Positions 20,966-36,955 of a stretch of DNA of 64,000 nt are shown piece after piece; position 1 is the stretch's first letter, and every line of letters starts with the position of its first letter. Both the position numbers and the translations under genes were made by a program. The notes beneath the pieces were generated by a model, which was given only the letters and a program-made list of their open reading frames with translations, ran no database searches and was not told the DNA's origin. The stretch is from an uncultured Chthonomonadaceae bacterium (GTDB taxonomy: Bacteria > Armatimonadota > Chthonomonadetes > Chthonomonadales > Chthonomonadaceae), in assembly GCA_963835065.1 (NCBI GenBank), contig CAWIEK010000060.1:1-64000 (forward strand), given 5' to 3'.

Positions 20966-21823
20966 TTGTCTCGATTTACGCGACGAAGCGCTTACGAGTT
21001 GTATGCCTGCCTGGGAAGCGACAATGGGCGCAGTCTCCGGCGCGCTGTCGCCATCCTGGATACGAAGGGAGTGCCTGCCACCGAGTTCCTGACAAACCTA
21101 TTGGCGCATGACCTTCAGGACTTTCGACGGGGCCGCAGGCAACAGGCATGGCTGTTGCTTGCGACGCTGGCGCTGTTTATGCTTGCGCATAGCCGGCTCA
21201 TTCTGGGGTGGCCTATCCACAATGAGTTCAGCCTGCTGTGCTTTCTGCTGTTTATGCTGATGACGCAGTTCCTGACATTGCGCTGCGACGCGCATTGCAG
21301 GAAAAAGAGGCGGATCAGGAACCTGTTGTTTTTGCTGCAAGAGGCCCCGCCTGTGGAGCGGACAGGTGTTTTCGTGGACGTCATGCGGTATGGGGATAGC
21401 GATGCGTCCTGTCTCGCCCAGGTTATTCTCGTGGCGACGCTGCCGCAAGTGAAAGACAAGAATCTGCTGTCGCAGGAGCAGCACGCGGCTTTATGCCAAA
21501 TCCTGCGAGGAACCAATACCAATCTGATTCTGGCGATTTTAGCCGCGTTTGAACAAATCGGAATTTCCCGCTCTCGTCGCGCCGTTCGACGTCTGGTATC
21601 GTGTCCCCTCTGGCTGGCAGACGCGAAACGCATTGAACGCGCCGCCAGCGCCTGCCTGCTGGCAATGCAGGAACGGGGCAAGCAGCAGGCGGTGGCCGAA
21701 ACGTCGCTGCGGGCGGCAACGCCTGCCGTTTCTACGGCGCGCGCGCTTTTGCGGCCTGTGGAAGCGTATAATTCCAGTCAAGACGCGGAACAGTTGATGC
21801 GTCTTTCTTCCCTTTCTGAGTAA
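20966..21823 (+). CDS. Hypothetical membrane protein with a HEAT-like helical C-terminus
   Basis: Two TM segments; LILAILAAFEQIG...AVRRL...AASACL. Confidence 0.6.
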   Translation: MSRFTRRSAYELYACLGSDNGRSLRRAVAILDTKGVPATEFLTNLLAHDLQDFRRGRRQQAWLLLATLALFMLAHSRLILGWPIHNEFSLLCFLLFMLMTQFLTLRCDAHCRKKRRIRNLLFLLQEAPPVERTGVFVDVMRYGDSDASCLAQVILVATLPQVKDKNLLSQEQHAALCQILRGTNTNLILAILAAFEQIGISRSRRAVRRLVSCPLWLADAKRIERAASACLLAMQERGKQQAVAETSLRAATPAVSTARALLRPVEAYNSSQDAEQLMRLSSLSE

Positions 21824-21896
21824 CTCTCCCTGTATTGAGCGCATCCTTTCGTATAGAAATGCTCACCCGGTTTCCAAAATTGGAAGCAGGGCTGTT

Positions 21897-23348
21897 TCAG
21901 TAGTATTCGCGGATGCGCTGATGGAGGCCGTACCCGGCAGCAAATGGAATCAGCAGCGACAGGAAAGCCGCGCTCAACGGCGTCCATTGGAGAATTTGAA
22001 AGGCGGCTTTTACGTCCTTGTCAAACTCCTTCTGGTTGATGTCCAGGACGGCTCCGAGCGCGCCGTCGAATTGATCGAACGCATAGTTGGATTGTCCGGG
22101 GTGCGTTCCCGTGCAGAGAATGACCGCCGCGTCATGCTGACCGGACTCTTCCATCTGGCGGATTTTGGCGTCCACTTGCAGGTAGGCGCCGAACGCGCGC
22201 AGCATGGCAATGGCGGCGTCCTGTTCGCCCGCAAAGGTGATGTTGCGCAGTTCGTCGCCGATATAGCCTTTGAACGTGGGCGGCTGGCTTTGCGCGGCGG
22301 CGATAACCGCGTCCGTAACCGGGGTGTCGGCGAGCAGCGCGGCCTTTTCCCGGAACTGCCGCGCGTATCGCTGCTGATCTTTATAAAGCAAATACAGGCT
22401 TTCATCCCCGTTCGCGTCGAACGCGACGGCGCGGGCCATCCACAGCGCATGAATGGAGTCGAAACAATCCTGCTTTGTCTGCTTCAACAGGGTTTGTTCC
22501 TGTCCGAGCGTATGCAGCGTTTGGGCCAAAAACACCAGCAACAGGAGTGTGGCAGCGGCCAGGGGTATGTTCAGCAGACGGTGGGCGCGCTGAAAAAGAA
22601 AGAACTGCGCTCCGGCGAGAACCGCCAGCAGCAGCAGGCCCATACCGGAAACCCGCAGGCGCAGCCAGCCCCCATTCTGCCGCGCCGTCGCATAAGCCGC
22701 GTTGAGATGGTCAAAGTTGGCGGCATCCAGGGCGACGGCGGAAGGCAGCAAGGTCTTGTGCATCCTATCCGAAGCCTGAAACAAAAGCGGCAAGCCTGCC
22801 GGGTAGCCTTTGGAGCGCGCCACTTCCACCAACCCCACGTACTGCTGCAAGGTGGCGGTCATAGCGAGAATAGGAACGCGCTCCTCGTCGCCGAAAGTGA
22901 TGTTTTGCGCGGCGGAAATCAGCGCGTCCGTAACCTGTTGGCGGTCTGTCTCATACTGCTTGCTGGCGGCTGTGGTCTGCTGGCTGAAAAAGCCGTTGGC
23001 GGCGTTGGCGTCCATGTCGGCAAGGTACGCGCGGATTTTTTCCGCCGCCACAATGCTCGGCACGGCGTCTTTGCCGATCACCTGAATCGCGCTGCGCGTG
23101 TCGGTCAAACTGCCCTGAACAATGAACCAGAGCAGGAAGGAGCCGAGCGCAATGAAAAGCGCGGCGGCCTGCATCCTTCCCGGCGTCGTTGCGGCGTGTT
23201 GGCGCAGGCGCGACAGCGCGGCAATGTAAGCAGGCGCAGGCGCAGGAGCCACAGGAACAGCAGCCGGGGCGGGAGAACCGGCGGCAGCAGGCGAAGCGGA
23301 AGTGGAAGCAGCGCCGGCAGGAGCCGGCGCGCGGGGCGCTATGGTCAT
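21897..23348 (-). CDS. GlnX-like 4-TM protein with two extracytoplasmic four-helix bundles
   Basis: LADMDANAANGF, HRLLNIPLAAAT loop and C-terminal GLHQRIREY resemble actinobacterial GlnX; ATGA-coupled to the FHA gene. Confidence 0.72.
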   Translation of the reverse strand: MTIAPRAPAPAGAASTSASPAAAGSPAPAAVPVAPAPAPAYIAALSRLRQHAATTPGRMQAAALFIALGSFLLWFIVQGSLTDTRSAIQVIGKDAVPSIVAAEKIRAYLADMDANAANGFFSQQTTAASKQYETDRQQVTDALISAAQNITFGDEERVPILAMTATLQQYVGLVEVARSKGYPAGLPLLFQASDRMHKTLLPSAVALDAANFDHLNAAYATARQNGGWLRLRVSGMGLLLLAVLAGAQFFLFQRAHRLLNIPLAAATLLLLVFLAQTLHTLGQEQTLLKQTKQDCFDSIHALWMARAVAFDANGDESLYLLYKDQQRYARQFREKAALLADTPVTDAVIAAAQSQPPTFKGYIGDELRNITFAGEQDAAIAMLRAFGAYLQVDAKIRQMEESGQHDAAVILCTGTHPGQSNYAFDQFDGALGAVLDINQKEFDKDVKAAFQILQWTPLSAAFLSLLIPFAAGYGLHQRIREYY

Positions 23349-24253
23349 GTACGGGCCTGTCTCTCGTGTACGGTGATGCGGGTCCAGCAGCCTAATGTGA
23401 TTTCATCGCCATCGTGCAGGGGCGCGCGGACACCGGGCTGTATGTCTACGCCGTTGAGCTGCGTTCCATTAGTGGAGCCAACATCCAGAAGCAGAAAACT
23501 GCCGTCCATTTGCCGCTGCAGTTTGGCGTGGCGATGCGAAACGCCGGGATCGTTGAGCGGGATTTCCGGGCGTATGTCCTTGCGCTCGCTGCGCCGCCCG
23601 ATCAGCATTTCGGCCACATCCAGCGGGAACACGCGCTCCGCTTCCCCCACCGGGGCCGGCACGTTGGGGTCAGGATCGGCATACAGCGAAGCGTCCACAA
23701 CGGCGCGAATTTCCCAACCGGGCGGCAGGGCGGAGGTGTCCGGCAAAGCGGCCTGCGTCAGTCCATTCGCCATGTCCCCATTCATAGCCGGAGGAAAGGG
23801 CGTTTCCGGTTGTGGCGATAGGGGAATGGCGGACGTTATTGGCGGAACAGGCGTTGTCGGCTGTGGCGGGCCAGGCGTTTCCGCGAAAGCCATTGGAGCC
23901 GCTGCTGGAATAGAGGGAACAAGAATGGGCGCCGGCGCCGCTTCCGCGGATGGCAGGGAAACGAGCAATGGCAGCGTGGAAACAACAATGGGCGGAACCG
24001 TCGCGGACGCTCCGCTTGCAAAGTTGTAACGGCACACTTCGCAAAACCGCGCCCCGTCGTGACGCGGCGTGCCACAATCCGGGCACACTTCCATGCCCGC
24101 GACTGCGCCGGTTCCCGTTGAGGATACGGGCGCATTAGGGGAGGCCGGCGCGTTCAAGCCGTCGCCCACGCCCTGAATTTTCGCGCCGCATACGGAGCAG
24201 TAATCGCTGTCGGCAGATTGGTGCGTTGGGTCTTTCGGACAGGCGTAAGTCAT
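23345..24253 (-). CDS. Double zinc-ribbon, Pro-rich linker, FHA domain protein
   Basis: YCSVCG, CPDCG...FCEVC; IGRR, GVSHRHA, GSTNGT. Confidence 0.9.
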   Translation of the reverse strand: MTYACPKDPTHQSADSDYCSVCGAKIQGVGDGLNAPASPNAPVSSTGTGAVAGMEVCPDCGTPRHDGARFCEVCRYNFASGASATVPPIVVSTLPLLVSLPSAEAAPAPILVPSIPAAAPMAFAETPGPPQPTTPVPPITSAIPLSPQPETPFPPAMNGDMANGLTQAALPDTSALPPGWEIRAVVDASLYADPDPNVPAPVGEAERVFPLDVAEMLIGRRSERKDIRPEIPLNDPGVSHRHAKLQRQMDGSFLLLDVGSTNGTQLNGVDIQPGVRAPLHDGDEITLGCWTRITVHERQART

Positions 24254-24255
24254 GG

Positions 24256-25533
24256 TCAGGCTCCTTGCGCGGGCTTGCGAACCGCGCGGGCGGTGCGCGT
24301 ACTGCCCAAATCCAAATCTATCTCATCGGCCTTGTTGACGGCGGATTTCAGGCGCACGGTTCCCTCATGCGCGTCCACGATTTCCACCACTTTCGCCAGC
24401 CGTCGGGTCGTATCTTCATTGCCGGAAGCCGCCGCCAGCTTCGCCGCCCGGCCTAAAAAGCGCGTGGCCGTGTCCATATCGCCCCGTTCCCGCGCTTCCA
24501 ATCCTTCCTGAATGGCGGACGCGAGTTCCTCCTGCCCGGTGTAGTGCGCCACCTGCGCGTTGATGCGCGAGGAAAGGCGCTCGTCGTCCGTCCACGTCGC
24601 CACCACAGGCTTGCCCGCTACTTTGGTTTCCTGCCCGCCCTGCTGATACACGATGGCGGGACGGCAGGCCAGCATCTCATCCCCAATATCACCCTGCATT
24701 ACCTGAATGGTAATCTGGTAGTCCCGCGATTCCGCGCCCCACGCGCCCGTCGGGAAATCGAATGTTTGCGGGTCCAGCCGGGTGGCGCGGGTCGTCAAGT
24801 CAACGATTTCAGGACTCATTTGCTTGCAGGCGAGGATGGTGGCGCTTTTGGGAGTCCACAGGCGCAGGCGCACATCCCCGATTGCCCGACCCATCGCGCC
24901 CTGAATGGCGGCGCGGAAATCGGCTTCCATGCCCCTCGGATTGGCAATAATCTGCGCCGTGCCGAGCAGTTTCTGCGCGATTTTTTGAAGCTGCTTTGTC
25001 TGCCAGTCCGTTCCCACGCCCCGGCAGTCGCACTGGAACACGCCCTCACACGCCTGCAATTCCTGCTCCAGCGTTCCTTCATCGTTGGGAGTGTTTTTGC
25101 CGTCGGTCAGGAACAGGGCGTAGGGAATAGCGTTGGGAAAGCGGGCAAATTCGAGCCGCGCCTGCCGCAGCGCCTGCGACATTACAGTTCCGCCGCCCGC
25201 GTCCAAGCGCTGTACGGCAGCCTGCGCGACGGCTTTATTTTGAGGCGTGGCAAGCGCGGGAGGCGAAATCAGCCGTACATGATCCGAAAAGCCAAGCACG
25301 AAGAATTGCGCGCTTGCATCCAGCAGATCAATGGCCTTGCGCGTGGCTTCCCGCGCATATTGGATTCGCTCGCCCTGCATGGAACCGGAAAGGTCAATAA
25401 TCAGGCCAATCACCGTGTTGGAACGAACAACCGCTTCCTCCCGGCCGGTTGCGCCAACGGTGACAATGGCGTCCACGCGATTGGTTCCCACCGGAAGGTA
25501 GGGATTCAAATAGGTATCCAGTGTAAACTGCAT
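24256..25533 (-). CDS. vWA domain protein
   Basis: MIDAS motif DLSGS, GGGT, LFLTDG. Confidence 0.9.
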   Translation of the reverse strand: MQFTLDTYLNPYLPVGTNRVDAIVTVGATGREEAVVRSNTVIGLIIDLSGSMQGERIQYAREATRKAIDLLDASAQFFVLGFSDHVRLISPPALATPQNKAVAQAAVQRLDAGGGTVMSQALRQARLEFARFPNAIPYALFLTDGKNTPNDEGTLEQELQACEGVFQCDCRGVGTDWQTKQLQKIAQKLLGTAQIIANPRGMEADFRAAIQGAMGRAIGDVRLRLWTPKSATILACKQMSPEIVDLTTRATRLDPQTFDFPTGAWGAESRDYQITIQVMQGDIGDEMLACRPAIVYQQGGQETKVAGKPVVATWTDDERLSSRINAQVAHYTGQEELASAIQEGLEARERGDMDTATRFLGRAAKLAAASGNEDTTRRLAKVVEIVDAHEGTVRLKSAVNKADEIDLDLGSTRTARAVRKPAQGA

Positions 25534-25642
25534 CGAGTTTCTCCTTGCCCATGCGGACATAATATTTTGCTAATACAAACACAACATTGTCCATGCGGAC
25601 ACAACATGTTGTGCCCCTACGGATTATTTCATTATGTTTATG

Positions 25643-26650
25643 TTAAAACGTTAATATGGCGACAGTGATGTTATCCCGCCCGCCCTGCAAATTGGCATAA
25701 GCGGCCAGACGCCGCGCCAGTTCCAGCGCGGTTTCCGGCGCGTCCGCTTCCGCGACAAGCGCGCCAAGCATTTCGGGCGTGGGCGCGTAGTTCCAAAGCC
25801 CGTCCGTACACAGCAGCAGACGGCTGCCCGGCAGCAAGCGAAGGGTGACAAGGCCGGGGGGTGGCGAGGTTTCGGGCTTGTCATCCTCCCACGGGCCGAG
25901 GCAAAGCGTGATCGCGTGGGCCTGCGGATCCCGCTCGGCTTCCTCCATGCTCATGGCTCCGGCGTCTACGATGTCGTTGACCCACGAATGGTCGCGGGTC
26001 AGAGGGCGCGTTTCGTTGGGCGTGAGCAGGTACGCGCGGCTGTCGCCGACCCATCCTATGGTGGCGGTTCCCTCGTAAACGAGCGCGGCCACAAGGGTCG
26101 TGAGCGGGGGCGTTTTGCCATTCCCTGCGTTGTGCGGCACGGCGCAAACAGCAAGATGGGCGGCGGCAATAGCCTGCTGCATCGCGCCAATCGCATCCAG
26201 CGCGTCGGTTCGCAGAGCGTCGGTCAGCGCCGTTTTTGCGGCCTGCGCCGCCGCTTCCGACGCCTGATCCGCTTCCTGAGAACTGCTGACGCCATCGCAT
26301 ACGACCAGAATGTAGGCTTCCCGCCCGCCCACAGTCCCGGTTCCGAGCGCCAGCGCGTCCTCGTTGCGCGCATGTTTGCGGCCCCGATCCGTCACCCCGC
26401 CGAACCCGGACGCGATTTCCACTTCCTGATGATCGCGGGGCTGTGGCGTTCGCGCCAGGGGCGTAACCCGCCTGCCGCATTGCAGGCAAAAGCCCTGCGC
26501 ATCCACCTGATCGGCTTCCGCCCCGCACCGACAGCGAACAGCGGCGTCACCTGTCGCTGTAACCCCCTGTACTGACGATAAAGCCGTTCCACACGCTTCA
26601 CAAAACCGCGCGTCTGCTGCCGCTTCCGCGCCGCATTTCGGACACTGCAT
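25643..26650 (-). CDS. Double zinc-ribbon PP2C (PPM) protein phosphatase
   Basis: CPKCG...FCEACG; RNEDA, CDGVS, VGDSRAY, CTDGLW, GGRDNIT. Confidence 0.92.
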   Translation of the reverse strand: MQCPKCGAEAAADARFCEACGTALSSVQGVTATGDAAVRCRCGAEADQVDAQGFCLQCGRRVTPLARTPQPRDHQEVEIASGFGGVTDRGRKHARNEDALALGTGTVGGREAYILVVCDGVSSSQEADQASEAAAQAAKTALTDALRTDALDAIGAMQQAIAAAHLAVCAVPHNAGNGKTPPLTTLVAALVYEGTATIGWVGDSRAYLLTPNETRPLTRDHSWVNDIVDAGAMSMEEAERDPQAHAITLCLGPWEDDKPETSPPPGLVTLRLLPGSRLLLCTDGLWNYAPTPEMLGALVAEADAPETALELARRLAAYANLQGGRDNITVAILTF

Positions 26651-26688
26651 CCGGTTCTTTCCTTAACTTTCCATTTCATGTATGCTGC

Positions 26689-28872
26689 TCAAAGCAGCGT
26701 GTGAGGCCGTATGTTGTTGGCCTGGTCTATGAAGGCGAAACGCTCCTGCTGCGTTTTGGCGTAGCGGGCGCAGGCGCGCAGTTCTCGTTCCGCGCCGATA
26801 CGCAGGGAGCGCGCGGCCATTTCCTGCCCTAACAACCGATTGGCGCTGTTGGCGGGAACCGCTTTGGCTTCCACTTGCGCCACCGCCGTGAGATACAGTT
26901 CCGCCGACAGACGGTGCAGCGCGAAGCCTTCCAGCGACAGGGCGGCAATGGCTTTAGCCGCCTGTATCAATTCATTCTCGCCGGGGGCAGTGGGCTGCGC
27001 GTGCAGCAGGGCGCGGGCCAGCGACATTTGCGCTTCCGTAAAGAAACTGGACGTGGCGGGAACGCGCCCATACGCGGCGACGGCTCCGCTCTTATCGGCA
27101 GTCGCCGCAAGACACCGCGCCAGTCCGAAGGACGCGCTGACATAGTTCGGCTCCGTGCGCGAAACCCGGTCGTAGTAACTTTCCGCCGTTTTCCAGTCCT
27201 GCGCCAATTCCGCCGACAGCGCAAGGGCCAGTTTGGGCGCGAGTTCGCCCGGCAGTTCGCTGTACACCTTGTCGAAAGCGGCCTGCGCATCGCGGGGCTT
27301 GCCCTGCGCCAGCAGCAGGCGTCCCCGGTACCACCATACGCGCCAGTCGAACGGGTCCTGCTCCAGCACATGCGCGAGATAGCCTTCTGCAGCCGCGTAC
27401 TGCGCCGTTCCAATCGCCTCATCCGCAAGGCGCAGGGGCGCTTCCACCGAGTCAGGAAACTTTTTGGCGGCGCTTTCCAGCAAATCCCGGCGCGCTTTGC
27501 CGGCCAGGGAACCGGAGGAAAGCAGCAGGGGCGCGGCGGGGTCGAGCGCGTCCAATTTCAGCATCGGCAACGCGCGCCAGTTGGGGCCAATCGCCGCGCC
27601 TTCCGCCTCGCTTTTGTCCAGCAGCGTGTCGCCCGTAAACAAGGGGCTTTCAAACGAGCGCGTGACGCCCGATTCTGCCATCACTTCGCGCAGAACGCCG
27701 AGCAGTTGTTCCGCCATCTCATCGGCGGATTGGAACCGCATATCAGGGTCGTTGTGCGTGGCGCGCAGCAGGAAGCGGTACAGCGAATCGTAATGCGCGA
27801 AAAGCGGCTGTTCGGCGGGCGTGGGCAGGGACGTCAGATAGGTTCCCTGAAACTTGAAGTCCATCAGCAGGACGGCCAATGTGCGGGCAACGGTGTACAA
27901 ATCGGAAGAAAACGAGGGACTCTGGTTGGCTTCCGGGGCGGTGTAGCCGACCGTGCCGTACACATCGCCATCGGTATCGTCTATCCGGCGCACGCCGCCC
28001 ATGTCTATCAATTTAACATCATCGTCTTCGAGCATGATGTTGTCGGGCTTGAAGTCACAATACACAAGGTTCTGGCGTTCCAGGTACGCGAAGGCGGGCA
28101 GAATGGCGTGGATGTAGGCGATGGCTTCCGCAACGGGCAACGGCCCGCGCTCCTGCCGAATGGCTTTGAGCGTTTTGCCGCCCACATACTCCATCACGAT
28201 GTAACCTTCGGTTCCCCGCGTGACAAAATTGTAAATGCCCACGATTTTGGGATTTTTCACTGCCGCCAAAAACTGCCGTTCGGCCACCGCAGCGGCAGCG
28301 CTTGCCGCGTCTTTGGAGTTCAGCAGGCCCTTGAGAACGACCCAGCGCGACAGCGTGGCATCCCATCCTAAATAAATCCAGCCCAGTCCGCCAAACGCGA
28401 TGGGGCCTTTTACTTCAAATTGCCCCGCAACCACATCCCCGGCTTTGAGCGTGGGAACAAACGAATACTCCTGCCCGCACATAGGGCAAAAGCCTTTTTC
28501 GTGATTGAGTTTGGCGTTGCAGTTGTTGCAGTAGCGCTTGCGGTCCGGCACAACGGGATCGGGCATGATGGACAGCAGCGGGTCCTGCGAGGGCAGCAGG
28601 GGCAGGGAGACCAGCCCCGCTCCAAGCTGGCGGCGCGTACTGACTCGGCCCCTGCCGCTCGCCTTGCCGTTTCGTCCCGACCCCGCGCGCCCCGAAAACG
28701 ACGCGCTCGCGCTTGACATGCTTTGCGAGGACAGGGCTGACGACCCGGTTCTGCCGCTGGCGGTATTCAGCGCGTCCAGTATTTTCTGACCGGCGGGCGG
28801 GCGTCCACAGGTATCGCAAAACCCGTCCACAATAACGCCGGCGCACCCGGCGCGTTGGCAGCGTACTTCCAC
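26689..28872 (-). CDS. pknG: PknG-like Ser/Thr kinase (rubredoxin-like domain, non-RD kinase, TPR)
   Basis: YCNNC...FCPMCG, IAFGGLGWIYL, VVLKGL, YCDFKPDN, IDMG, YGTVGYTAPE, TPR repeats and C-terminal DQANNIRP all parallel PknG. Confidence 0.88.
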   Translation of the reverse strand: MEVRCQRAGCAGVIVDGFCDTCGRPPAGQKILDALNTASGRTGSSALSSQSMSSASASFSGRAGSGRNGKASGRGRVSTRRQLGAGLVSLPLLPSQDPLLSIMPDPVVPDRKRYCNNCNAKLNHEKGFCPMCGQEYSFVPTLKAGDVVAGQFEVKGPIAFGGLGWIYLGWDATLSRWVVLKGLLNSKDAASAAAAVAERQFLAAVKNPKIVGIYNFVTRGTEGYIVMEYVGGKTLKAIRQERGPLPVAEAIAYIHAILPAFAYLERQNLVYCDFKPDNIMLEDDDVKLIDMGGVRRIDDTDGDVYGTVGYTAPEANQSPSFSSDLYTVARTLAVLLMDFKFQGTYLTSLPTPAEQPLFAHYDSLYRFLLRATHNDPDMRFQSADEMAEQLLGVLREVMAESGVTRSFESPLFTGDTLLDKSEAEGAAIGPNWRALPMLKLDALDPAAPLLLSSGSLAGKARRDLLESAAKKFPDSVEAPLRLADEAIGTAQYAAAEGYLAHVLEQDPFDWRVWWYRGRLLLAQGKPRDAQAAFDKVYSELPGELAPKLALALSAELAQDWKTAESYYDRVSRTEPNYVSASFGLARCLAATADKSGAVAAYGRVPATSSFFTEAQMSLARALLHAQPTAPGENELIQAAKAIAALSLEGFALHRLSAELYLTAVAQVEAKAVPANSANRLLGQEMAARSLRIGAERELRACARYAKTQQERFAFIDQANNIRPHTLL

Positions 28873-28891
28873 GATTATTTGTTCCTGCTTT

Positions 28892-30130
28892 CTACTTGCG
28901 ATTTAATCGCTTCTCATATTCCCCTACAAGGCGGGCTGCTTCCGCCACAACGACGGGGTACGCATGCAGGCAGGCTTCCGCCTGTCCTGCAATATCCGGC
29001 AGGGCGGCATCCAGAATTTGGCCGCGCGCCTGTAGGGATTGCGCTTTGGCCTGAAACGCGGCCAGTCTGCCCCGCAGGTCTAAGATCGCATCCAGGGGAA
29101 ATTGGTTGGCGGCAAGGGCGGCGCGTTCGGCGTCCAGATACGCATTGGCGGCGGGCAGCCAATGGCTGAGTCCCACGCCTACTGCTTTCCAGTGCCCCTG
29201 CTCGGCGGTTGCGTTCAGCGTGGCAAGCCAGCGTTCGAGGTCAATAATCGCGCTTTCCTCCAAAGGCGCGCGTAATGCCTGCGTCCCCGCTATCTTTTGC
29301 CGACATTGCGTAAGCGCGGCCCTGCATTGTTCATGCGCTTCCCGCAGACTTTGCAGCAGGAGGGGCGCGCGGTTCAGGTCGGCCTGTGTTTGCGCGCGCT
29401 GACGCGCCAACTCCTCCAAACGTTGGCGGGTTCGCTGGAGAAGCGGCGACACTTCCCGGTCGAAACCGGCGTCCGCGCCCAGCGGGTCATTGGCAATCGT
29501 CCGACTTAGTTCCGCAACGCGCTGCCGGACAGCAGTGAGTTCGTTTAATTCCGGTTCTCCCATTGAAGCGGCCAGTTCCTGCAAGCGGCCCACTTCCTGA
29601 TGGGCGTCGGCAAGGGCGGGTTCCAGCCGGTTCCAGGCCGTGTCTACGGCCAGAATGGTATTCTTGACACCGGCAAACACGCGCGTCATGGCTGTCAGCA
29701 GCAGGTCGGGCGTAGTGGTTTGTGGGATTTGCGCGGCTCCCAGCAAATCACGTTGCGCAAGCGGCGTTTCCAGGGGCGGCAACACGACGCTCGGCCCCTG
29801 CAAAAGCTGCGCAATCTCTAAAAGCGCCACATCCGTTCGCCGTACGCGCGGCAGGGAACCGCGCAGTTCGGACGCCCGCTTGACCACGTCGCTGAGAAGC
29901 TGCAAATACTGCCAGAGCGTACGCGCCGAGGCAAGCGCGGGAACCACTTGCGCCTGCGTGGTTCCGATAAGCGCGGGGGGCGCGTCGAGTTCGCCTTTGA
30001 GTCGCCGGTACGTAAAAAAATCATCCAGTTCGATCAGATTGCGGCTGACAACGTTGAGTTTTTGCTGCCAGGCCGCGAGTTCGCGGTCTATCTGCGCGAT
30101 GGTAATTTCTGGTTGCTGTGGGTGTGGCAT
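28892..30130 (-). CDS. All-helical/coiled-coil hypothetical protein, first gene of the kinase operon
   Basis: 412 aa heptad-rich soluble protein ending 19 bp before the kinase start. Confidence 0.8.
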   Translation of the reverse strand: MPHPQQPEITIAQIDRELAAWQQKLNVVSRNLIELDDFFTYRRLKGELDAPPALIGTTQAQVVPALASARTLWQYLQLLSDVVKRASELRGSLPRVRRTDVALLEIAQLLQGPSVVLPPLETPLAQRDLLGAAQIPQTTTPDLLLTAMTRVFAGVKNTILAVDTAWNRLEPALADAHQEVGRLQELAASMGEPELNELTAVRQRVAELSRTIANDPLGADAGFDREVSPLLQRTRQRLEELARQRAQTQADLNRAPLLLQSLREAHEQCRAALTQCRQKIAGTQALRAPLEESAIIDLERWLATLNATAEQGHWKAVGVGLSHWLPAANAYLDAERAALAANQFPLDAILDLRGRLAAFQAKAQSLQARGQILDAALPDIAGQAEACLHAYPVVVAEAARLVGEYEKRLNRK

Positions 30131-30202
30131 CTTACAATTGATTTTCGCGTTCTCACACCAGGTTTACTTTTTAGAAGCAGGCCAATAAGAAGCAGGCCTA
30201 AC

Positions 30203-30275
30203 GAAACAAAGGCCAGAGATACGCGCAATTCACGGAACCGTTCGTCCCGCTTTTGCAGCGCATCTCTGGCCTCTC
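30203..30275 (-). terminator. Long hairpin with a U-rich tail inside the 5' leader of the kinase operon (attenuator candidate)
   Basis: Minus strand AGGCCAGAGAT...ATCTCTGGCCT followed by TTGTTTC. Confidence 0.6.
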
Positions 30276-30447
30276 ATGCGACAATCAGCGCTTATTTGTG
30301 AGCGCAAACCTTCGCAACGGCAACCAGAAAAGTTTGAAATTATTTGCTACTAAGAGCGATAGCCCGGCTCCCGGTCGAAAAGAACATGTACAAGTACAAA
30401 TGCGCTATTTCGTCAGGAACCCTGAAGCCTTGCTCCACCTATACTTC

Positions 30448-30476
30448 ATTATCGCATAATTCGGCGCGGGTGTCAA
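30448..30476 (-). promoter_or_regulatory. sigma70-type promoter for the kinase operon
   Basis: TTGACA, 17 bp spacer, GATAAT with an extended -10 TG. Confidence 0.75.
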
Positions 30477-30494
30477 CGGCAAAACCGTCCGTAT

Positions 30495-30923
30495 TTACCG
30501 GTTTGTCTTGATTGCGTTGCTCACGGCTTCGCGGTTGATGATGACCGCTTCTTCCGGGGTCAGGTGATAGCGGGCGCGCGTCTGGGCTTGAAACTGCCTG
30601 TTCAGGCGCATGCTCAGGCGGCTTTGCTGGTTCTGCTGCTTGTTGGCGGCAGGCGTACCCGCTGTGGCCGTGACGGGAACGCGCTGCCTGGCGGCGTCGG
30701 CGGCACGGCCTTCCGATTTCGCCAGTTCCCCGGCAATGCGCGTTCTCTGCTCCGCTGTGAACCGCTTATGCACACTGGCTTTTGCCCGATTGTAGCGGGA
30801 AAGGTACGCTTTGTCTTTGTGCCCGTTGAAGGGCCGATAGTCCTTTTGCGCGCCGCTCAACATCGGCACGGACGTCATTAGCACGGACAGCGCAAGGATC
30901 GTTTGGAATCGTCGCCTACTCAT
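30495..30923 (-). CDS. Secreted basic hypothetical protein
   Basis: GAGGAG RBS; signal peptide MSRRRFQTILALSVLM. Confidence 0.7.
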   Translation of the reverse strand: MSRRRFQTILALSVLMTSVPMLSGAQKDYRPFNGHKDKAYLSRYNRAKASVHKRFTAEQRTRIAGELAKSEGRAADAARQRVPVTATAGTPAANKQQNQQSRLSMRLNRQFQAQTRARYHLTPEEAVIINREAVSNAIKTNR

Positions 30924-31214
30924 CTTCTTATTCTCCTCTGAATGGTACTGCTTTGAATGATACTGCAAGGATGCTGCAGAAACACTACAGTCGTGAGACA
31001 CACGGCGTCAGTGAACAAAAGATTACCGCCGCATAGCCTGTCAGAGTATACAACTTTTCACCCCCTTTTACGACTGCCTTGCTGTCGCATATCATCGTTT
31101 TTCCTGAAATTCCAAAATATGCCATACTATAGCGGCAGACATGCTTTTGCGCCTCCGTCAGCTTTGCCAACAGGAGTAAGAGAGGGTTGTCAGCGCCGGT
31201 TTGATCTCCCGAAG

Positions 31215-31228
31215 TTGAAACGTTTCAA
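31215..31228. promoter_or_regulatory. Perfect palindrome TTGAAACGTTTCAA, LacI-family-like operator
   Basis: 14 bp perfect palindrome with central CG, 150 bp upstream of the SBP-OmpA gene. Confidence 0.5.
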
Positions 31229-31377
31229 TGCGCCTTTACGTCAACTATTGCATCATCAGGCTTGTATTGCCATCTCGCGCAAAGGAACTACTCTGCGCCT
31301 GTATTGGCGATAGGATGCAGGCCGTTGCAAAGGCGCGACAATGATCACAAAGGTGTTGTCCAAAGGAGAATGTACTG

Positions 31378-33192
31378 ATGAAGCTTAAGCCGACCGGGAA
31401 ACTTGTAGTTCTGATACTGGCTGTTGGGTTGGCGTTTGGATTGTGGCGGTTTTGGAAGCGGTTCGGGAGCGCGATTGCGCCGGAAGCCCAAACCACAAGC
31501 GCCGTTGTGCCGAAATCGGCAAACTTGCCGAACGTGGACCCGGCGCAGCCGGCCAATAACAACGGGGGCGGCAATGTGGTCCTGCCCGGCGACGCGCCCG
31601 GCGTGCCCGACAAACCCGAAGTGCGCTTTTTGGGCTATGCCTGGAACGCGCAAATGGGACTGCTTTTTGCCAATGGCGGCCCGCAGGCCACAGCCGGCAG
31701 CCTGATGGCAAAACATGGCGTCAACCTCAAATTCGCCCGCCAGGACGATAACAACAAATTGCAGGAAGCGCTCACGGCCTTTGCCACCGAACTGAGTCAA
31801 GGCAACGCCAACCCGCAAAAGGGCGCGCACTTCGTCACCATCATGGGCGACGGCAGCGCGGCGTTTTTGAAGCCGCTCAACGACACGCTGCGCCGATTGG
31901 GACCGGAGTATCAGGCCAAAGTGGTCGGATCGTGCGGCTACTCTCATGGCGAAGACAAGTTCATGGGGCCGGCGGCGTGGAAAGCCAATCCTCCGTCGAG
32001 CCGGGGCGGGTTTGTGGCCGGCGTTTTGCGCGACGGCGACTGGAACATCGCGCAAAAGTGGTTAGGCGACAACGGCCTGCGCACCAATCCCGATGAAAAA
32101 ACGTATGATCCTGATGCGCTCAACTGGGTCAATGCTTCCGATTACCTGGATGCCGCGCAAAAGTACATCGCGGGCTACGCCGAAGACCGCCCCGTCGTGC
32201 GCAACGGCAAGCGAACGGGCGAGACAAAGCATGTGGTTGTAGATGGCGTGGTGACATGGACGCCGGGTGACGTGAACGTGGCCGAAAAGAAGGGCGGGCT
32301 GGTATCTATCGTTTCCACGAAGGAATACAGTTCGCAGATGCCGTGCATCATCATCGGCATTGACAAGTGGATGAAGAACAATCGCCCCACCGTAGATGGC
32401 ATGCTGATGGCGATTGCCGAAGGTGGCGACGCGGTAAAGTCCAATCCGTCCGCCCTGCAAAAAGCCGCAGCGGTCAGCGCGCAGGTCTACCATGAGTCCG
32501 ACCCCGCGTATTGGGAGCGCTACTACAAGGGCGCTTCGGAGCCGGACAAAACGGGAGTGCCAATTGATCTGGGCGGGTCGAGCGCGAGTAACCTGGCCGA
32601 AATGCTGCTGACGTTCGGACTGGTGAGTGGGTCGGCAAACCTGTACGAAGCCACGTACCGCGTGTTCGGTGATATTGTGGTCGCGCAGTACCCGCAGCTT
32701 CTGCCGAACTACCAGCCGATAAGCGAGGTTATGGATACGACGTACCTTCAGGATATCGTGAAAAAAGCCGCGCCGACAACCGCAACCGTCGCTTCCGCCA
32801 AGCCGAAGTACCAGAACACCAAAAAAGTAACCAGCGTGGTCAGCCGCCGCGCCTGGAACATCCACTTCGAAACAGGCAAAGCCGCGCTCGCGCCCGACTC
32901 AAAGCGCATGGTGGAGCAACTGGGACGTGAGGCGCTGGTTGCCAGTGGAACCGTCGTTGAAATTCACGGCCATACCGACAATCAGGGAACGCCGTCCGCG
33001 AATATGGCCCTGTCGGAATCCCGCGCCTTTGCTGTGAAGAAGCGATTGGAGCAGGCGTACCCGGTCAACTTCCCGCCGGGGCGTATTCGCGTCTTCGCGC
33101 ACGGTTCCGAAAATCCCATTTCGGAAAACGCCACGCCGCAGGGCCGCGCCCAAAACCGCCGCGTAGAAATCATATTAGGAACAGGCGGGTAA
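31378..33192 (+). CDS. Membrane-anchored periplasmic-binding-protein-like domain fused to an OmpA-like peptidoglycan-binding domain
   Basis: N-terminal TM helix; C-terminal IHFETG, IHGHTD, LSESRA, NRRVEI; SBP role inferred from the adjacent ABC genes and the VTWTPGD motif. Confidence 0.82.
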   Translation: MKLKPTGKLVVLILAVGLAFGLWRFWKRFGSAIAPEAQTTSAVVPKSANLPNVDPAQPANNNGGGNVVLPGDAPGVPDKPEVRFLGYAWNAQMGLLFANGGPQATAGSLMAKHGVNLKFARQDDNNKLQEALTAFATELSQGNANPQKGAHFVTIMGDGSAAFLKPLNDTLRRLGPEYQAKVVGSCGYSHGEDKFMGPAAWKANPPSSRGGFVAGVLRDGDWNIAQKWLGDNGLRTNPDEKTYDPDALNWVNASDYLDAAQKYIAGYAEDRPVVRNGKRTGETKHVVVDGVVTWTPGDVNVAEKKGGLVSIVSTKEYSSQMPCIIIGIDKWMKNNRPTVDGMLMAIAEGGDAVKSNPSALQKAAAVSAQVYHESDPAYWERYYKGASEPDKTGVPIDLGGSSASNLAEMLLTFGLVSGSANLYEATYRVFGDIVVAQYPQLLPNYQPISEVMDTTYLQDIVKKAAPTTATVASAKPKYQNTKKVTSVVSRRAWNIHFETGKAALAPDSKRMVEQLGREALVASGTVVEIHGHTDNQGTPSANMALSESRAFAVKKRLEQAYPVNFPPGRIRVFAHGSENPISENATPQGRAQNRRVEIILGTGG

Positions 33193-33203
33193 ACGTCTAA
33201 ACT

Positions 33204-34143
33204 ATGAACGAAACCGGCAAAATAAAGACTTCTCCGATTGTGGCGGAAACGGCAGGGGCGCCGACAGCCGACAAAGTGATTGTGGCGGGCGCGCATGGCA
33301 ATGCCGCGCTGAAAGTGGGCGATCTTACGCCCGGTGAGCGCGGGCATGGCGCGGCAGGAAGATGGATTGACATCTTCCTGCCCAATCGCGCCGTGTCGCC
33401 CATGACGATGCGCCTGATCGTGCTGGCGGAAGTGGCGATTGCGCTGCTGATTTGGATACGCTCACCGTTCAAGGTGCTTCCCCTGCCCGGCGAAGTGCTG
33501 ACGGCGCTGCGCTCCCTGTGGTTCACACAGGGGTTGGGGCCGGAACTGTATACCAGTTTCCTGCTCAACGTTCGCGCCCTGGCGTGGTCTTCGGTATCTG
33601 TCATTGGGACTGGCCTATTTAACCGTGATTCCGATTTTTCGCCCGCTTGCCGCAGCAGTATCAAAAGGGCGCTTTCTCAGTCTGGCAGGCTTTACGTTCG
33701 TGTTTACGCTGATGTTTGCGGGCGGCGCGGCGCTGAAAACGTCCCTGCTTGTCTTTGCCGTGACCGTGTTTTATGTCACTTCTATGGCGGCAGTGATCGC
33801 CGCGATTCCTAAAGGCAACTTCGATTATGCCCGGACGCTGCGCATGAGCGAGTGGCAGATTGTGTGGGAAGTGGTGATTTTGGGAACGGCGGACAAGGCG
33901 TTTGAAGTGCTGCGCCAGAACGCCGCTATTGGCTGGATGATGCTGACGATGGTGGAAGGCATTTCGCGCTCCGAAGGCGGCGTGGGGGCCGTGCTGCTCA
34001 ACCAGACCAAGTATCTCCGCCTCCCCGAAGTGTTCGCCATTCAAATCGTGATTTTAATTGTCGGCTTGTTTCAGGATTACGCTATTGGCGCGGCGCGACG
34101 CCTCGTTTGTCCCTACGCCGACCTGACACTGGAAAGAAAGTAG
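33204..34143 (+). CDS. ABC transporter permease (NitT/TauT-like); frameshift near 33603
   Basis: LPLPGEVL, EAA-like FDYARTLRMS loop, GWMMLTMVE. Confidence 0.85.
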
Positions 34144-34216
34144 AAATAGCTTCTCCTCGCAGGAGAGGAGCAACAAAATAGCCCCTCTCCTCGCAGGAGA
34201 GGGGTTGGGGTGAGGT

Positions 34217-35038
34217 ATGGCCGCCGTTCAATACGAATATGGAGAAACGCTGCTCAAAGTCTCCGGCGTCAACAAGAAACTTGGCGGCGAAACGATTTTG
34301 CGCGACGTTGATCTGGAAGTGAAAGACATTCTGCGCAAAGGGTTCACGCAGGGGCAGGTTATCGGCCTGCTTGGGCCGTCCGGGGTGGGCAAAACCACGC
34401 TGTTTCGCTTGCTGGCGGGGCTGGACATGCCGGACAGCGGCTCTATTATAGTTGAAAACAAGCCCGTTCACCGGGGAATGGTCGGCGTTGTGGCGCAAAA
34501 CTATCCCCTGTTTGAACATCGGACGGTGCTGTCGAATTTGCGGGTGGCGGGCAGATTGGGGCATCTGCCACAAGCGCAGGCGACAGCGCTGGCACAATCC
34601 CTGCTGGCGCGGTTCGGACTGGAAGCGCAGGCCAACAAGTACCCGGTTCAGCTTTCGGGCGGGCAGCGTCAGCGCGTGGCGATTGCGCAGCAGTTCATGT
34701 GCAGCGAGCATTTGCTGCTGATGGACGAGCCGTTTTCCGGCCTGGATCTGGTGGCGCAGGAAAGCGTCTGCGCCTTAATCCGCGAAATGGCGCAAACCGA
34801 TGAACTGAAAACGTTTGTGATCGTCACCCACGACATTGCCGCCGCGCTGGCCGTCGTGGATACCATCTGGCTTTTGGGCCGGGACCGGGACGCGCAGGGA
34901 CGAATCGTGCCCGGCGCGCGTATTCAAGCCGTATACAATTGCGTGGAACGCGGCGTCGCCTGGCGCGAAGACGGCCCCTCCTCGCCGGAATTTTTGGAAC
35001 TGCTGCGCGAAATCCGAACGGTGTTTGTCAATTTGTAG
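34217..35038 (+). CDS. ABC transporter ATP-binding protein (NitT/TauT-like)
   Basis: GPSGVGKT, LSGGQRQR, LMDEPFSGLD, VTHD. Confidence 0.93.
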   Translation: MAAVQYEYGETLLKVSGVNKKLGGETILRDVDLEVKDILRKGFTQGQVIGLLGPSGVGKTTLFRLLAGLDMPDSGSIIVENKPVHRGMVGVVAQNYPLFEHRTVLSNLRVAGRLGHLPQAQATALAQSLLARFGLEAQANKYPVQLSGGQRQRVAIAQQFMCSEHLLLMDEPFSGLDLVAQESVCALIREMAQTDELKTFVIVTHDIAAALAVVDTIWLLGRDRDAQGRIVPGARIQAVYNCVERGVAWREDGPSSPEFLELLREIRTVFVNL

Positions 35039-35122
35039 GGAACAGGGAACAGCAAATACATAAAACATGAGTTTTAGGTAAGCGCTCATTCCCTGTTCCC
35101 TGTTCCCTGTTCCCTGTTCCCT
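35038..35122. repeat. Inverted heptamer arrays (GGGAACA)n / (TGTTCCC)n
   Basis: Visible directly between the ATPase gene and the next gene. Confidence 0.85.
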
Positions 35123-36091
35123 ATGCCAATGCCTAAACATAACCGTATCCTCGAAGCCATGAAGGAAAGCTACAACGCGGTCGGCCTTGCCGGGGCGGTG
35201 GCGCTTTCTGCCGCCCTGCTCAATCCCCTGCCGCTGCTGGCCGCCCTTGTCGCCGAGGCTGCGTATCTCCTGTTTGTGCCGGATTCCAAATGGTACGCGG
35301 ATCGGCTGGCAAAGCGTTACGATGCCGAAATCGAGCAGCAACGCCAACTGATGAAGGCGCAAACGCTGACCCTGCTGCGGCCTGAAATGCAGGAGCGGTT
35401 CGCGCATCTGGAAGATATGCGTCGGCAGATAGACGCGCAATCGGCGGAAGACAAGGCGTGGTTTCGGGAAGTGCTGCGGAAACTGGATTACCTGCTGGAT
35501 AAGTTTCTGCTGTTCGCGGGCAAGGAAGTACAGTTTCGCGCTTATCTGGAACAGCTTCAAAACGAAATTCATCCCTCCGGCGGCACGGGCTACGCGCAGA
35601 ATTGGAATGTGGAGCGTGACCGCAATGCGTCGCGCGCCCATTCCCGTGACGCAGAGCGCGATACGCCCCACGCCAAGCGCAGGCTGGTGTCGGATATAGC
35701 GGGAGTTGGCAATTCGTATTCCACAGACGAGTGGACGCAGAAGGTTGTGGGCGAGATACAGGCGCATTACGCGCAGGAAGCCGACAAATTAGGCCAATCG
35801 CTGTCAGCCGAAACGGATGACGCGACCCGTTCCATACTGCAAAAGCGAACCGACATTTTGCAGCGCCGTAATGAATTTGTCGGCAAAATCGGCAGAATAC
35901 TCGTCAACCTGAACCATCAGCTTCAACTGGTCGAAGATACCTTCGGACTAATCAATGATGAAATCCGCGCCCGCTCCCCCGAACAAATACTGGCCGATGT
36001 GGAAGAAGTGGTTGTCGCAACGGATACGATGGCGTCGTCGCTTCAGGAATTGGCTTCCGTCGAGCAGATGATGGCGCGGCTGGCGTCGTAG
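35123..36091 (+). CDS. N-terminally membrane-anchored coiled-coil protein
   Basis: Hydrophobic hairpin in the first ~50 aa followed by long amphipathic helices. Confidence 0.78.
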   Translation: MPMPKHNRILEAMKESYNAVGLAGAVALSAALLNPLPLLAALVAEAAYLLFVPDSKWYADRLAKRYDAEIEQQRQLMKAQTLTLLRPEMQERFAHLEDMRRQIDAQSAEDKAWFREVLRKLDYLLDKFLLFAGKEVQFRAYLEQLQNEIHPSGGTGYAQNWNVERDRNASRAHSRDAERDTPHAKRRLVSDIAGVGNSYSTDEWTQKVVGEIQAHYAQEADKLGQSLSAETDDATRSILQKRTDILQRRNEFVGKIGRILVNLNHQLQLVEDTFGLINDEIRARSPEQILADVEEVVVATDTMASSLQELASVEQMMARLAS

Positions 36092-36166
36092 CCCTCAACC
36101 CCCGGCCCCTTCTCCCAAAAAGCCTGGGAGAAGGGGAGCCATGAACATTTAAGGAAAACGCTTGCT

Positions 36167-36955
36167 ATGAGCCTTCGGAATACATTGCGTAAAGCGGCGG
36201 GACTTTTGGTGGAGTTGCCGCCGGATGAGGAAGAAGCCACGCCCCATGCGCAGGGGAACACGGGCGGTACGAGTGGCGGAAGTGGCGCGACGGATCAGAT
36301 GTGGGCGGAATTGGAAAAGGCCGCGCAGAAGCCGCAGGCATCCACATCCGGCGGGGTTCCGTTCGCGTCGCCAGCCGCTTCCAAGACCGTCGAGCAGATC
36401 GCGCGCGAGGAGCATGGGCCGAATTTAGACCAGATTCAGGTCACGTCGCAGGCCGTACACCCGGACGCGCATTTGAGCGGTACACTGGATTTCAACAGCA
36501 TTTACGAGGCGGCGCATTTGCCTGCCGCGCCGTTCAGCGCCGAGCAGGTGCTTGCCATGTTTGCCGAATTGCCTGCCGAAGTGCCGATGCAAACCAAGCG
36601 GCAGATGATGAAAGTCTCCATCAATGCGATGGGCAAAGCGATTGGCGCATCCCCCGAAAGCATTGTGGCGGACGCTTCGCGCAAACTGGCGGCGCTGACG
36701 GCGTATACGGAACATCTCACCCAAACCACGCAGGAATACACGAACGTTTCGGCGCAAAAAATCGCCGAACTGGAAGCCGAAATAGATAAAATTCGCGTAG
36801 CGGTTGCCACTGCGCAGCAGCGGCAGTTCCGCGAAACGCAGATTTGTACCGAAGAATCGCACCGACTGGACGACGTGCTGGAATTTTTTAGCCTGGACGT
36901 TCCGCCCTCCAAATATGCGGACACGAATCCCAACGGCCTGACAACATCCTCCTGA
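36167..36955 (+). CDS. Soluble coiled-coil hypothetical protein
   Basis: Amphipathic N-terminus, low-complexity linker, DFNSIYEAA helical domain, C-terminal heptads. Confidence 0.78.
   Translation: MSLRNTLRKAAGLLVELPPDEEEATPHAQGNTGGTSGGSGATDQMWAELEKAAQKPQASTSGGVPFASPAASKTVEQIAREEHGPNLDQIQVTSQAVHPDAHLSGTLDFNSIYEAAHLPAAPFSAEQVLAMFAELPAEVPMQTKRQMMKVSINAMGKAIGASPESIVADASRKLAALTAYTEHLTQTTQEYTNVSAQKIAELEAEIDKIRVAVATAQQRQFRETQICTEESHRLDDVLEFFSLDVPPSKYADTNPNGLTTSS

Follow-up and report, generated by a model that had tools for sequence, protein, structure and literature searches.

PknG has been treated as an actinobacterial Ser/Thr kinase whose single input is GlnH and whose one main output is GarA or OdhI. 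In the available text on the pathway in Mycobacterium and Corynebacterium (PMC6069109, PMC9769921, PMC8546545, bioRxiv 10.64898/2026.07.02.735984), PknG is a rubredoxin-kinase-TPR protein, and GlnX is its membrane transducer. The three-gene operon was described as actinobacterial in the accessible part of PMC6069109. Rubredoxin-bearing PknG homologues were also noted in Ktedonobacter and Calothrix, with no description of their gene neighbours in the part of PMC8546545 available. The window analyzed here is a stretch of 64,000 nucleotides from an uncultured Chthonomonadaceae bacterium (contig CAWIEK010000060.1, assembly GCA_963835065.1, genome G000 below). Between positions 21897 and 30130 it carries six open reading frames (ORFs), all on the minus strand, that encode a helical protein, a PknG-type kinase, a PP2C phosphatase, a von Willebrand factor A (vWA) protein, a zinc-ribbon-FHA protein and GlnX.

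The cassette is a real, conserved and apparently undescribed variant of the PknG pathway; stray non-actinobacterial PknG kinases have already been published. No description of a six- or seven-gene cassette was found in the literature searched, in which coverage of subscription journals was thin, nor in the available portions of the WHOOPER preprint, PMC11032199, PMC9600765 and bioRxiv 10.64898/2026.01.23.701218 on Deinococcus. The reading we prefer, with a probability of about 0.5 and partly by analogy, is as follows. The GlnX-type membrane sensor would sense a signal itself, likely without a solute-binding partner, and would activate the kinase across the membrane. The kinase would likely phosphorylate the threonine tail of the vWA protein, the zinc-ribbon-FHA protein would bind the phosphorylated tail, and PP2C is predicted to reset this switch. 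The helical protein may act as a scaffold. What we observed is the gene content, the domain make-up, the altered sequence of GlnX and that searches found no GlnH or GarA. Direct sensing by GlnX, vWA as the substrate, FHA-vWA binding and the scaffold role are the steps that we infer.

The kinase, its host and the missing partners

The kinase belongs to the PknG family, as judged by its architecture and motifs. Both PknG_rubred (PF16919, E 1.8e-17, residues 78-142) and PknG_TPR (PF16918, E 3.5e-64) matched, Pkinase (PF00069) was also above its cut-off, and the best PDB match was PknG itself (2PZI, residues 82-724, E 1.4e-129). The hallmarks listed in the preliminary description were all present in the sequence: the conserved rubredoxin cysteines (115/118/129/132), the P-loop GGLGWIYL (161-168), the non-RD catalytic loop YCDFKPDN (271-278) and the TPR region. 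The extra N-terminal cysteine cluster (C5, C10, C19, C22) and Ser-rich linker pointed out there proved to be conserved. A quick kinase tree (84 rows, midpoint root only) placed the window kinase with Chthonomonadaceae, apart from the actinobacterial side.

The suggestion of a non-actinobacterial host also stood. WhiB was not found in G000, with a control detected only in Corynebacterium. The proteins flanking the named Armatimonadota loci had best identities of 70-82% to G000, and those of all other loci at most 61%. The flanking-protein identities and the kinase grouping together led us to read the host as Armatimonadota.

GlnH and GarA/OdhI had been described as lacking, and the genome-wide searches of G000 found neither. 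None of its 11 FHA matches came near the OdhI cut-off, and OdhI scores were far below the cut-off in five other cassette genomes. The only SBP_bac_3 match in G000 was a fusion of a solute-binding protein and a permease beside an ATP-binding cassette (ABC) ATPase, with 94 bits on a GlnH profile built from 19 GlnH-like proteins. True GlnH scored 368-442 bits in two control genomes, both of which had contributed to the profile. In 23 cassette-bearing genomes the profile gave at most 139 bits, with no match at 1e-25 in 10 of them. Because G000 is 92% complete, the absence of GlnH and GarA rests on this repetition across genomes. G000 also has a stand-alone sucA followed by a separate sucB, with no actinobacterial two-in-one OdhA/KGD. 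With neither GlnH nor GarA/OdhI found and with sucA and sucB separate, GarA-type control of the tricarboxylic acid (TCA) cycle is unlikely, which supports the earlier view that the output lies elsewhere. The sucA at G000:C68:139022-142048 is split over several frames, probably by assembly indel errors. G000 has two small-subunit rRNA loci, at C51:119419-121114 (the match spans 1696 nt) and at C37:25-1327 (matched in pieces, which insertions may explain).

The cassette recurs widely. Among the best 80 of 121 genome loci, all six genes occurred without GlnH in 43, spread over Armatimonadota, Cyanobacteriota, Acidobacteriota, Bacillota and Pseudomonadota. Nostocales are over-represented among these 43, and many of the remaining loci are cut by contig ends. 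In the best 80 of 561 metagenome loci, 40 had all six genes, 17 with GlnH and 23 without. Actinobacteria have either a seven-gene form with GlnH (L077, L109-L111), which is the kinase-PP2C-vWA-FHA string with a glnH gene mentioned in the preliminary description, or a three-gene form (L112-L115). Two further loci, L146 and L157, have the window's gene order with GlnH after glnX, at the end. In the same 84-row tree the kinases of these two loci form the sister group of 52 GlnH-less rows (support 91), and together these stand apart from the actinobacterial side (100). In the relative G023 about 325 kb separate vWA-FHA-glnX from the kinase (C4:264697 and C4:590595), and both have been kept.

This distribution bears on whether the cassette is a decaying remnant, non-functional after the loss of GlnH. 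Its presence is indeed patchy, with PknG_TPR and above-cut-off GlnX found in the same five of 61 related genomes, and broken or partial copies occur in L052, L081, L083 and L064-L072. However, all six frames of the window are intact, catalytic motifs included, the six genes stay together without GlnH in the 43 genome and 23 metagenome loci across phyla, and the clade-specific GlnX motifs described below are nearly invariant. We regard decay as highly improbable.

GlnX and the input

The last cassette gene, left unnamed in the preliminary description, is GlnX by its profile match: NF058618 gave 277 bits (cut-off 250), and the mycobacterial equivalog NF041460 gave 82.7 bits (cut-off 780). Since GlnX is present in the module, the membrane input has been retained and remodelled, not lost. 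The predicted structure (pLDDT 91.9) consists of tandem four-helix bundles, as described for GlnX in the accessible text of PMC9769921. Domain 1 aligned with the LytS sensor (Z 17.4, root-mean-square deviation (rmsd) 1.4, 116 residues) and domain 2 with MCP2201 (Z 15.7, rmsd 2.3, 133 residues). Foldseek gave no match for GlnX at E ≤0.001.

Published mutants allowed the two ends of the protein to be compared residue by residue. According to the part of the preprint available (bioRxiv 10.64898/2026.07.02.735984), R298D, E302S and E437A/Y438F abolish complementation in M. smegmatis, and V164R and S167E do not. The accessible portions of established work on relatives hold that GlnX depends on its C-terminus to function and propose that this end acts on PknG via the TPR domain. 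The 439-residue GlnX of L112 and L113 has V164, S167, R298 and E302 at exactly these numbers, and this fixed the mapping onto the window protein. The C-terminus is kept. Over 133 GlnH-less-type sequences (the window and 132 of 150 representatives, kept at 430-500 aa), R478, E481 and Y482 were conserved at 99, 99 and 88%, and E481/Y482 match E437/Y438. The tip of domain 2, predicted to dock GlnH, is not kept in the window protein, as judged from the alignment. GlnX proteins adjacent to GlnH have R299 in 9/9 and G300 in 8/9, and the window has Y322-K323-D324 in place of R298-R299-G300, with a gap at E302.

The GlnH-less clade lacks this tip and carries features of its own. A NITxGxxE motif occurs in bundle 1 (N149 93%, T151 90%, E156 98%; n=133) and again in bundle 2 (N369 94%, T371 90%, E375 98%), and domain 2 is longer, with a median of 88 residues in the measured segment against 50-75. 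Among 52 further metagenome GlnX proteins, 22 with GlnH have the tip motif and no NIT, 25 have NIT and no GlnH, and five have neither; in four of the GlnH-less cases a contig end is less than or equal to 530 nt away. In a careful GlnX tree of 54 selected rows with the trait columns removed, all 34 members of the GlnH-less clade fell on one branch (98/98). Sensing without a binding protein is, on these sequence grounds, slightly favoured.

Several observations weigh against this. The single branch means that GlnH loss and motif gain count as one event and not as many independent ones. The window GlnX and eight other GlnH-less GlnX proteins keep three of the four domain-1 tip residues, and R298 and E302 are poorly conserved even in GlnX proteins adjacent to GlnH. 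The NIT loops are found where the bundles come close to the membrane, and their role may be a structural one and not that of a ligand pocket. Four-helix-bundle sensors such as MCP2201 have a membrane-near ligand pocket. Finally, binding proteins of other kinds can partner GlnX: in L186, a member of the GlnH-type clade, glnX is abutted by a gene for a PstS-like protein, and an SsuA-type binding protein directly follows glnX in L006 and L007.

These last cases raise the alternative that the kinase-vWA-FHA switch is the same and that GlnX needs a binding protein of another family, encoded elsewhere in the genome. Besides L186 and L006/L007, other binding proteins lie near L037 and L039, and four GlnH-less-clade loci are flanked by binding proteins of three unrelated families. 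LytS, the nearest structural match, works with a binding protein according to the available text of PMC9769921, and the partly retained domain-1 tip would fit as well. However, no such family is conserved beside the cassette in the 63 of 74 flanking ORFs scanned, L186 does not belong to the window's clade, and the candidate next to the window's cassette does not travel with it. This candidate is a gene for a binding-protein-like-OmpA fusion (604 aa), which shares a divergent operon (31378-36955, plus strand) with genes for a permease, an ABC ATPase and two proteins of 322 and 262 aa that fall in no family. The fusion gene occurs in 16 of the 61 relatives (63-87% identity), and its presence does not follow that of the PknG cassette. 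All four other relatives with a cassette lack it, and 15 relatives without one have it. It had no match near related cassettes and is present at the empty site of G002, a genome of the same genus, and we rejected the operon as a GlnH substitute. We consider a recruited binding protein unlikely.

The loci with other binding proteins have further features. In L186 the PstS-like phosphate-binding protein (119-1243) replaces GlnH beside glnX, and the locus is possibly a phosphate-sensing PknG operon; the loci L197 and L199, whose GlnX is closely related, are cut by contig ends. An SsuA/urea-type ABC transporter precedes the cassette and a second SsuA-type protein follows glnX in L006 (10561-11643) and L007 (5898-8665, 16480-17658), and L007 also has genes reading as a urea carboxylase cluster beside the transporter.

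Other GlnX variants were seen. Fusions among the 150 representatives comprise kinase-GlnX (P0110, P0140) and GlnX-SpoIIE phosphatase (P0095), and in P0068 a GlnX-type sensor is fused to a vWA fragment. G001 has a second, stand-alone glnX (C2:4044692-4046011), and L129 has tandem copies. That the domain-2 insert might cap the site where GlnH docks was considered and dropped; in the model the insert interrupts a helix of the bundle, and L039 and L054 have a short insert or none.

What GlnX would respond to was also considered from the gene neighbours. One possibility is that it responds not to a ligand but to a physical change of membrane or wall, and that the cassette is the kinase-controlled branch of a PspA/TelA-type response to envelope stress or phage. 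A TelA gene comes before the cassette in 5/80 genome and 9/80 metagenome loci; it is directly upstream in 14 GlnH-less-type loci and in actinobacterial L077 and L082. PspA and/or an AAA ATPase precede it in L049, L053, L081 and four metagenome loci, with both of them upstream in L053 and L134. The patchy distribution among the relatives, the empty site in a congener and a weak EzrA-like resemblance of the helical protein would also agree with such a role. On the other hand, TelA accompanies GlnH-bearing operons too, and the polar periplasmic residues of GlnX are strongly conserved, as a binding site would be. Most cassettes, the window's included, have neither TelA nor PspA close by. The queries used detected neither of them in G000, and this makes the stress reading weaker for the window copy. 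Purely physical sensing seems distinctly improbable to us. With few TelA/PspA loci, and neither protein found in G000, envelope stress is only a weak preference and, as the purpose of the cassette, doubtful. Our best guess for the downstream effect, the least certain part of the model, is nonetheless a response to stress of the cell envelope or membrane and not the control of 2-oxoglutarate.

The proposed vWA-FHA output and the helical protein

The proposed output has a counterpart in archaea. As far as the accessible text of PMC6509490 and PMC12852372 describes it, ArnA binds phosphorylated C-terminal threonines of ArnB; zinc-finger docking is followed by locking of the FHA domain on phosphothreonine (PMC12852372), the ArnB phosphosites map to a C-terminal bundle, and the Catenulispora structure 4FX5 shares the tripartite ArnB fold (PMC6509490). 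The window vWA protein matched VWA_2 and VWA_3_C and comprises a vWA domain, a β-sandwich and a C-terminal helical bundle. It aligned with 4FX5 over residues 11-428 (E 5.5e-97) and with the ArnB complex 8S05. The MIDAS (metal ion-dependent adhesion site) residues were conserved in 53/53 sequences, as were the tail threonines T401 (53/53), T421 (51/53) and T423 (53/53). Of 52 further vWA proteins, 46 had a T-x-T motif among their last 20 residues.

The partner protein has a double zinc ribbon, a Pro-rich linker and an FHA domain with no ETTS-like motif found, just as the preliminary description had it. Its phosphothreonine-pocket residues R220, S239 and N262 were each conserved in 55/55. No archaeal ArnA chain was among its 21 PDB matches, and the likeness to ArnA is one of architecture only. 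The phosphatase matched PP2C_2 (E 2.1e-14) and DZR (E 5.9e-08), and gave 137 bits on NF033484, below the cut-off of 230. With regard to the TerY-P triad of vWA, PP2C and kinase, no ter genes were recognized among recurring cassette neighbours; no TerY profile comparison was made.

By analogy with ArnA/ArnB, a vWA-FHA switch is the rather probable output, and the fold and the conserved tail threonines lend good indirect support to vWA as the kinase target. Three points speak against it. With ArnB itself the protein shares little sequence similarity (E 6.9e-09, vWA domain only). Most proteins with an ArnB-type fold are not multi-phosphorylation switches, according to the available part of PMC12852372. 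The vWA and FHA genes are also missing beside some kinases (L064-L072, L070, L074).

Another possibility is that the zinc-ribbon-FHA protein stands in for GarA. Its linker would be phosphorylated, metabolic enzymes would be its targets, and control of nitrogen and carbon metabolism would be kept. The kinase core is PknG-like over its whole length, SsuA/urea-type transporter genes and, in L007, the urea carboxylase-like cluster lie beside cassettes, and ArnAB deletions affect nitrogen metabolism too in the accessible text of PMC12852372. However, the linker has no conserved acceptor threonine except position 80, just after the zinc ribbon, which is Thr in 40/55 and Ser in the window. The FHA protein gave 33 bits on the OdhI model (cut-off 200), and the low OdhI scores of G000 and the five other genomes and the separate sucA and sucB genes also disagree. 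We judge such a substitution quite unlikely, and retain the vWA-FHA switch as the preferred output.

The helical protein had been named with vWA as a likely target. The vWA part of this claim has the indirect support given above, and the helical part was not supported. Only T58 (41/57) and S114 (44/57) were conserved among its Ser/Thr residues, and only moderately, and the protein is absent from the cassettes of L070, L076 and L083. It had no Pfam match and no Foldseek match at E ≤0.001. The predicted structure (pLDDT 91.7) is a chain of three-helix bundles, for which the VIA structure search gave bundle or EzrA-like matches at background level (Z ≤11.6). The alignment with EzrA 4UXV (Z 10.2, rmsd 10.1, 322 residues) and the Atlas EzrA row (0.82) were both within the helical-bundle background. 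Homologues adjoin PknG in 58/80 genome loci, and the gene always directly precedes the kinase except in L150 and L167. The few conserved Ser/Thr residues, the bundle chain and the place before the kinase led us to favour a scaffold over a substrate as its likely role. Complex prediction of residues 9-409 with kinase residues 130-727, which lack the N-terminus and rubredoxin, scored 0.00, a value that carries no verdict either way. In the cyanobacterial loci L064, L066, L067, L069, L071 and L072 a two-gene form pairs a shorter helical protein of about 320 aa with the kinase, with vWA, FHA and GlnX not found nearby. G000 has a second FHA/vWA/PP2C/kinase gene cluster at C44:29370-41398, with five FHA-containing genes.

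A wider scenario, less likely than not, can be offered tentatively. One ancient loss of GlnH may have produced a self-sufficient class of GlnX receptor, a pseudo-symmetric sensor of tandem four-helix bundles with a NITxGxxE ligand site of its own, which would signal across the membrane to Ser/Thr kinases and phosphatases, in trans here and fused to them elsewhere, and drive a bacterial ArnA/ArnB-type switch. Kinase-vWA-FHA might then be the original PknG output, and the mycobacterial three-gene pathway a reduced derivative.

Borders of the cassette and comparison with known systems

The features of the window are listed in Table 1. The gaps between the six ORFs, from the helical gene to glnX, are 19, 38, 82, 2 and -4 nt, and their GC content at third codon positions is 0.66-0.74.

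Table 1. Position and assignment of the cassette genes and associated features in the window.
Feature	Position	Strand	Basis or remarks
Helical protein, 412 aa, soluble	28892..30130	-	No Pfam match; predicted three-helix-bundle chain
PknG-type Ser/Thr kinase, 727 aa	26689..28872	-	N-terminal Cys4 cluster, Ser-rich linker, rubredoxin, non-RD kinase, TPR
PP2C-type phosphatase, 335 aa, N-terminal double zinc ribbon	25643..26650	-	Pfam
ArnB-type vWA protein	24256..25560, probable true start 25533	-	VWA_2, VWA_3_C, PDB match
Double zinc ribbon-Pro-rich linker-FHA protein, 302 aa, ArnA-like architecture	23345..24253	-	Domain search
GlnX-family membrane transducer, 483 aa, GlnH-less clade	21897..23348	-	NF058618
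Sigma-70-like promoter candidate, TTGACA-17-GATAAT, extended -10	30448..30476	-	Consensus match only
Insertion/deletion unit, approximate	21715..30524	.	Empty site in same-genus genome G002

At the empty site in G002 about 160 nt separate the counterparts of the window flanks 30525-36945 and 20968-21714, so that roughly the stretch between these flanks is one insertion/deletion unit. No repeats were found at the cassette ends; a 615-nt-spaced repeat within glnX arises because glnX is internally duplicated. The promoter candidate, which precedes the first gene by about 320 nt, belongs to the part that the empty site lacks, and matches the consensus at 11/12 positions, the best of five sites against 2.4 expected in shuffles. 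Rfam showed no riboswitch or known RNA in the leader of about 320 nt, with one chance-level match outside it (E 0.41). The vWA gene probably starts at the ATG at 25533, which AGGAGA precedes. The annotated ATG at 25560 is overlapped by a pair of imperfect direct repeats of 25 nt (25545-25611), spaced 42 nt apart and situated between the genes for PP2C and vWA. A 285-aa membrane protein without a Pfam match (20966-21823, plus strand) converges on the cassette end, and its family has at least seven paralogues in G000.

With the GlnH-GlnX-PknG-GarA/OdhI pathway the cassette shares, besides the kinase architecture, a tandem-bundle GlnX with the C-terminal Glu-Tyr and the placement of glnX and pknG in one operon. 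It differs in its non-actinobacterial host, its four extra genes and the lack of GlnH, GarA/OdhI and two-in-one OdhA, none of which was found. The window kinase has in addition the N-terminal Cys4 cluster, and the window GlnX has NITxGxxE motifs and a longer domain 2 in place of the domain-2 tip. With no GlnH or GarA found, this is not the canonical PknG pathway, although its kinase and GlnX are family members. A GlnX-PknG core is thus conserved without GlnH or GarA/OdhI in Armatimonadota, cyanobacteria, Acidobacteriota, Bacillota and Pseudomonadota. Because a natural GlnH-free GlnX that keeps the essential Glu-Tyr separates input from output, the activation of PknG by GlnX becomes easier to test, and the carriers include the harmless, culturable Nostoc and Undibacterium.

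The seven-gene actinobacterial operon (glnX-glnH-helical-pknG-PP2C-vWA-FHA) contains the same six families, with the vWA tail and MIDAS conserved in both. In contrast to it, the window lacks GlnH and has GlnX at the operon end, and the kinases and GlnX proteins fall in separate clades. The DRA0331-0334 operon of Deinococcus radiodurans, compared by description from the available part of bioRxiv 10.64898/2026.01.23.701218, likewise combines vWA, kinase, FHA and PP2C functions in one operon. There the kinase is a transmembrane Ser/Thr protein kinase and the phosphatase has a KI-FHA domain, with no GlnX or helical protein in that description.

The likeness to the ArnA-ArnB-ArnC-PP2A switch of Sulfolobus, as set out in the accessible text of PMC6509490 and PMC12852372, is one of parts and arrangement. 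Both systems place a zinc-finger-linker-FHA protein beside a vWA/β-sandwich/helical-bundle protein with MIDAS and C-terminal threonines, and both have a TPR-containing kinase and a phosphatase. The sequence similarity is only remote. The window has a double instead of a single zinc ribbon, PP2C instead of PP2A, no archaellum, and a PknG-type kinase with a membrane transducer, and its FHA-vWA binding is predicted. The cassette would offer a bacterial setting for an ArnA/ArnB-like switch, with the exact residues named for mutation.

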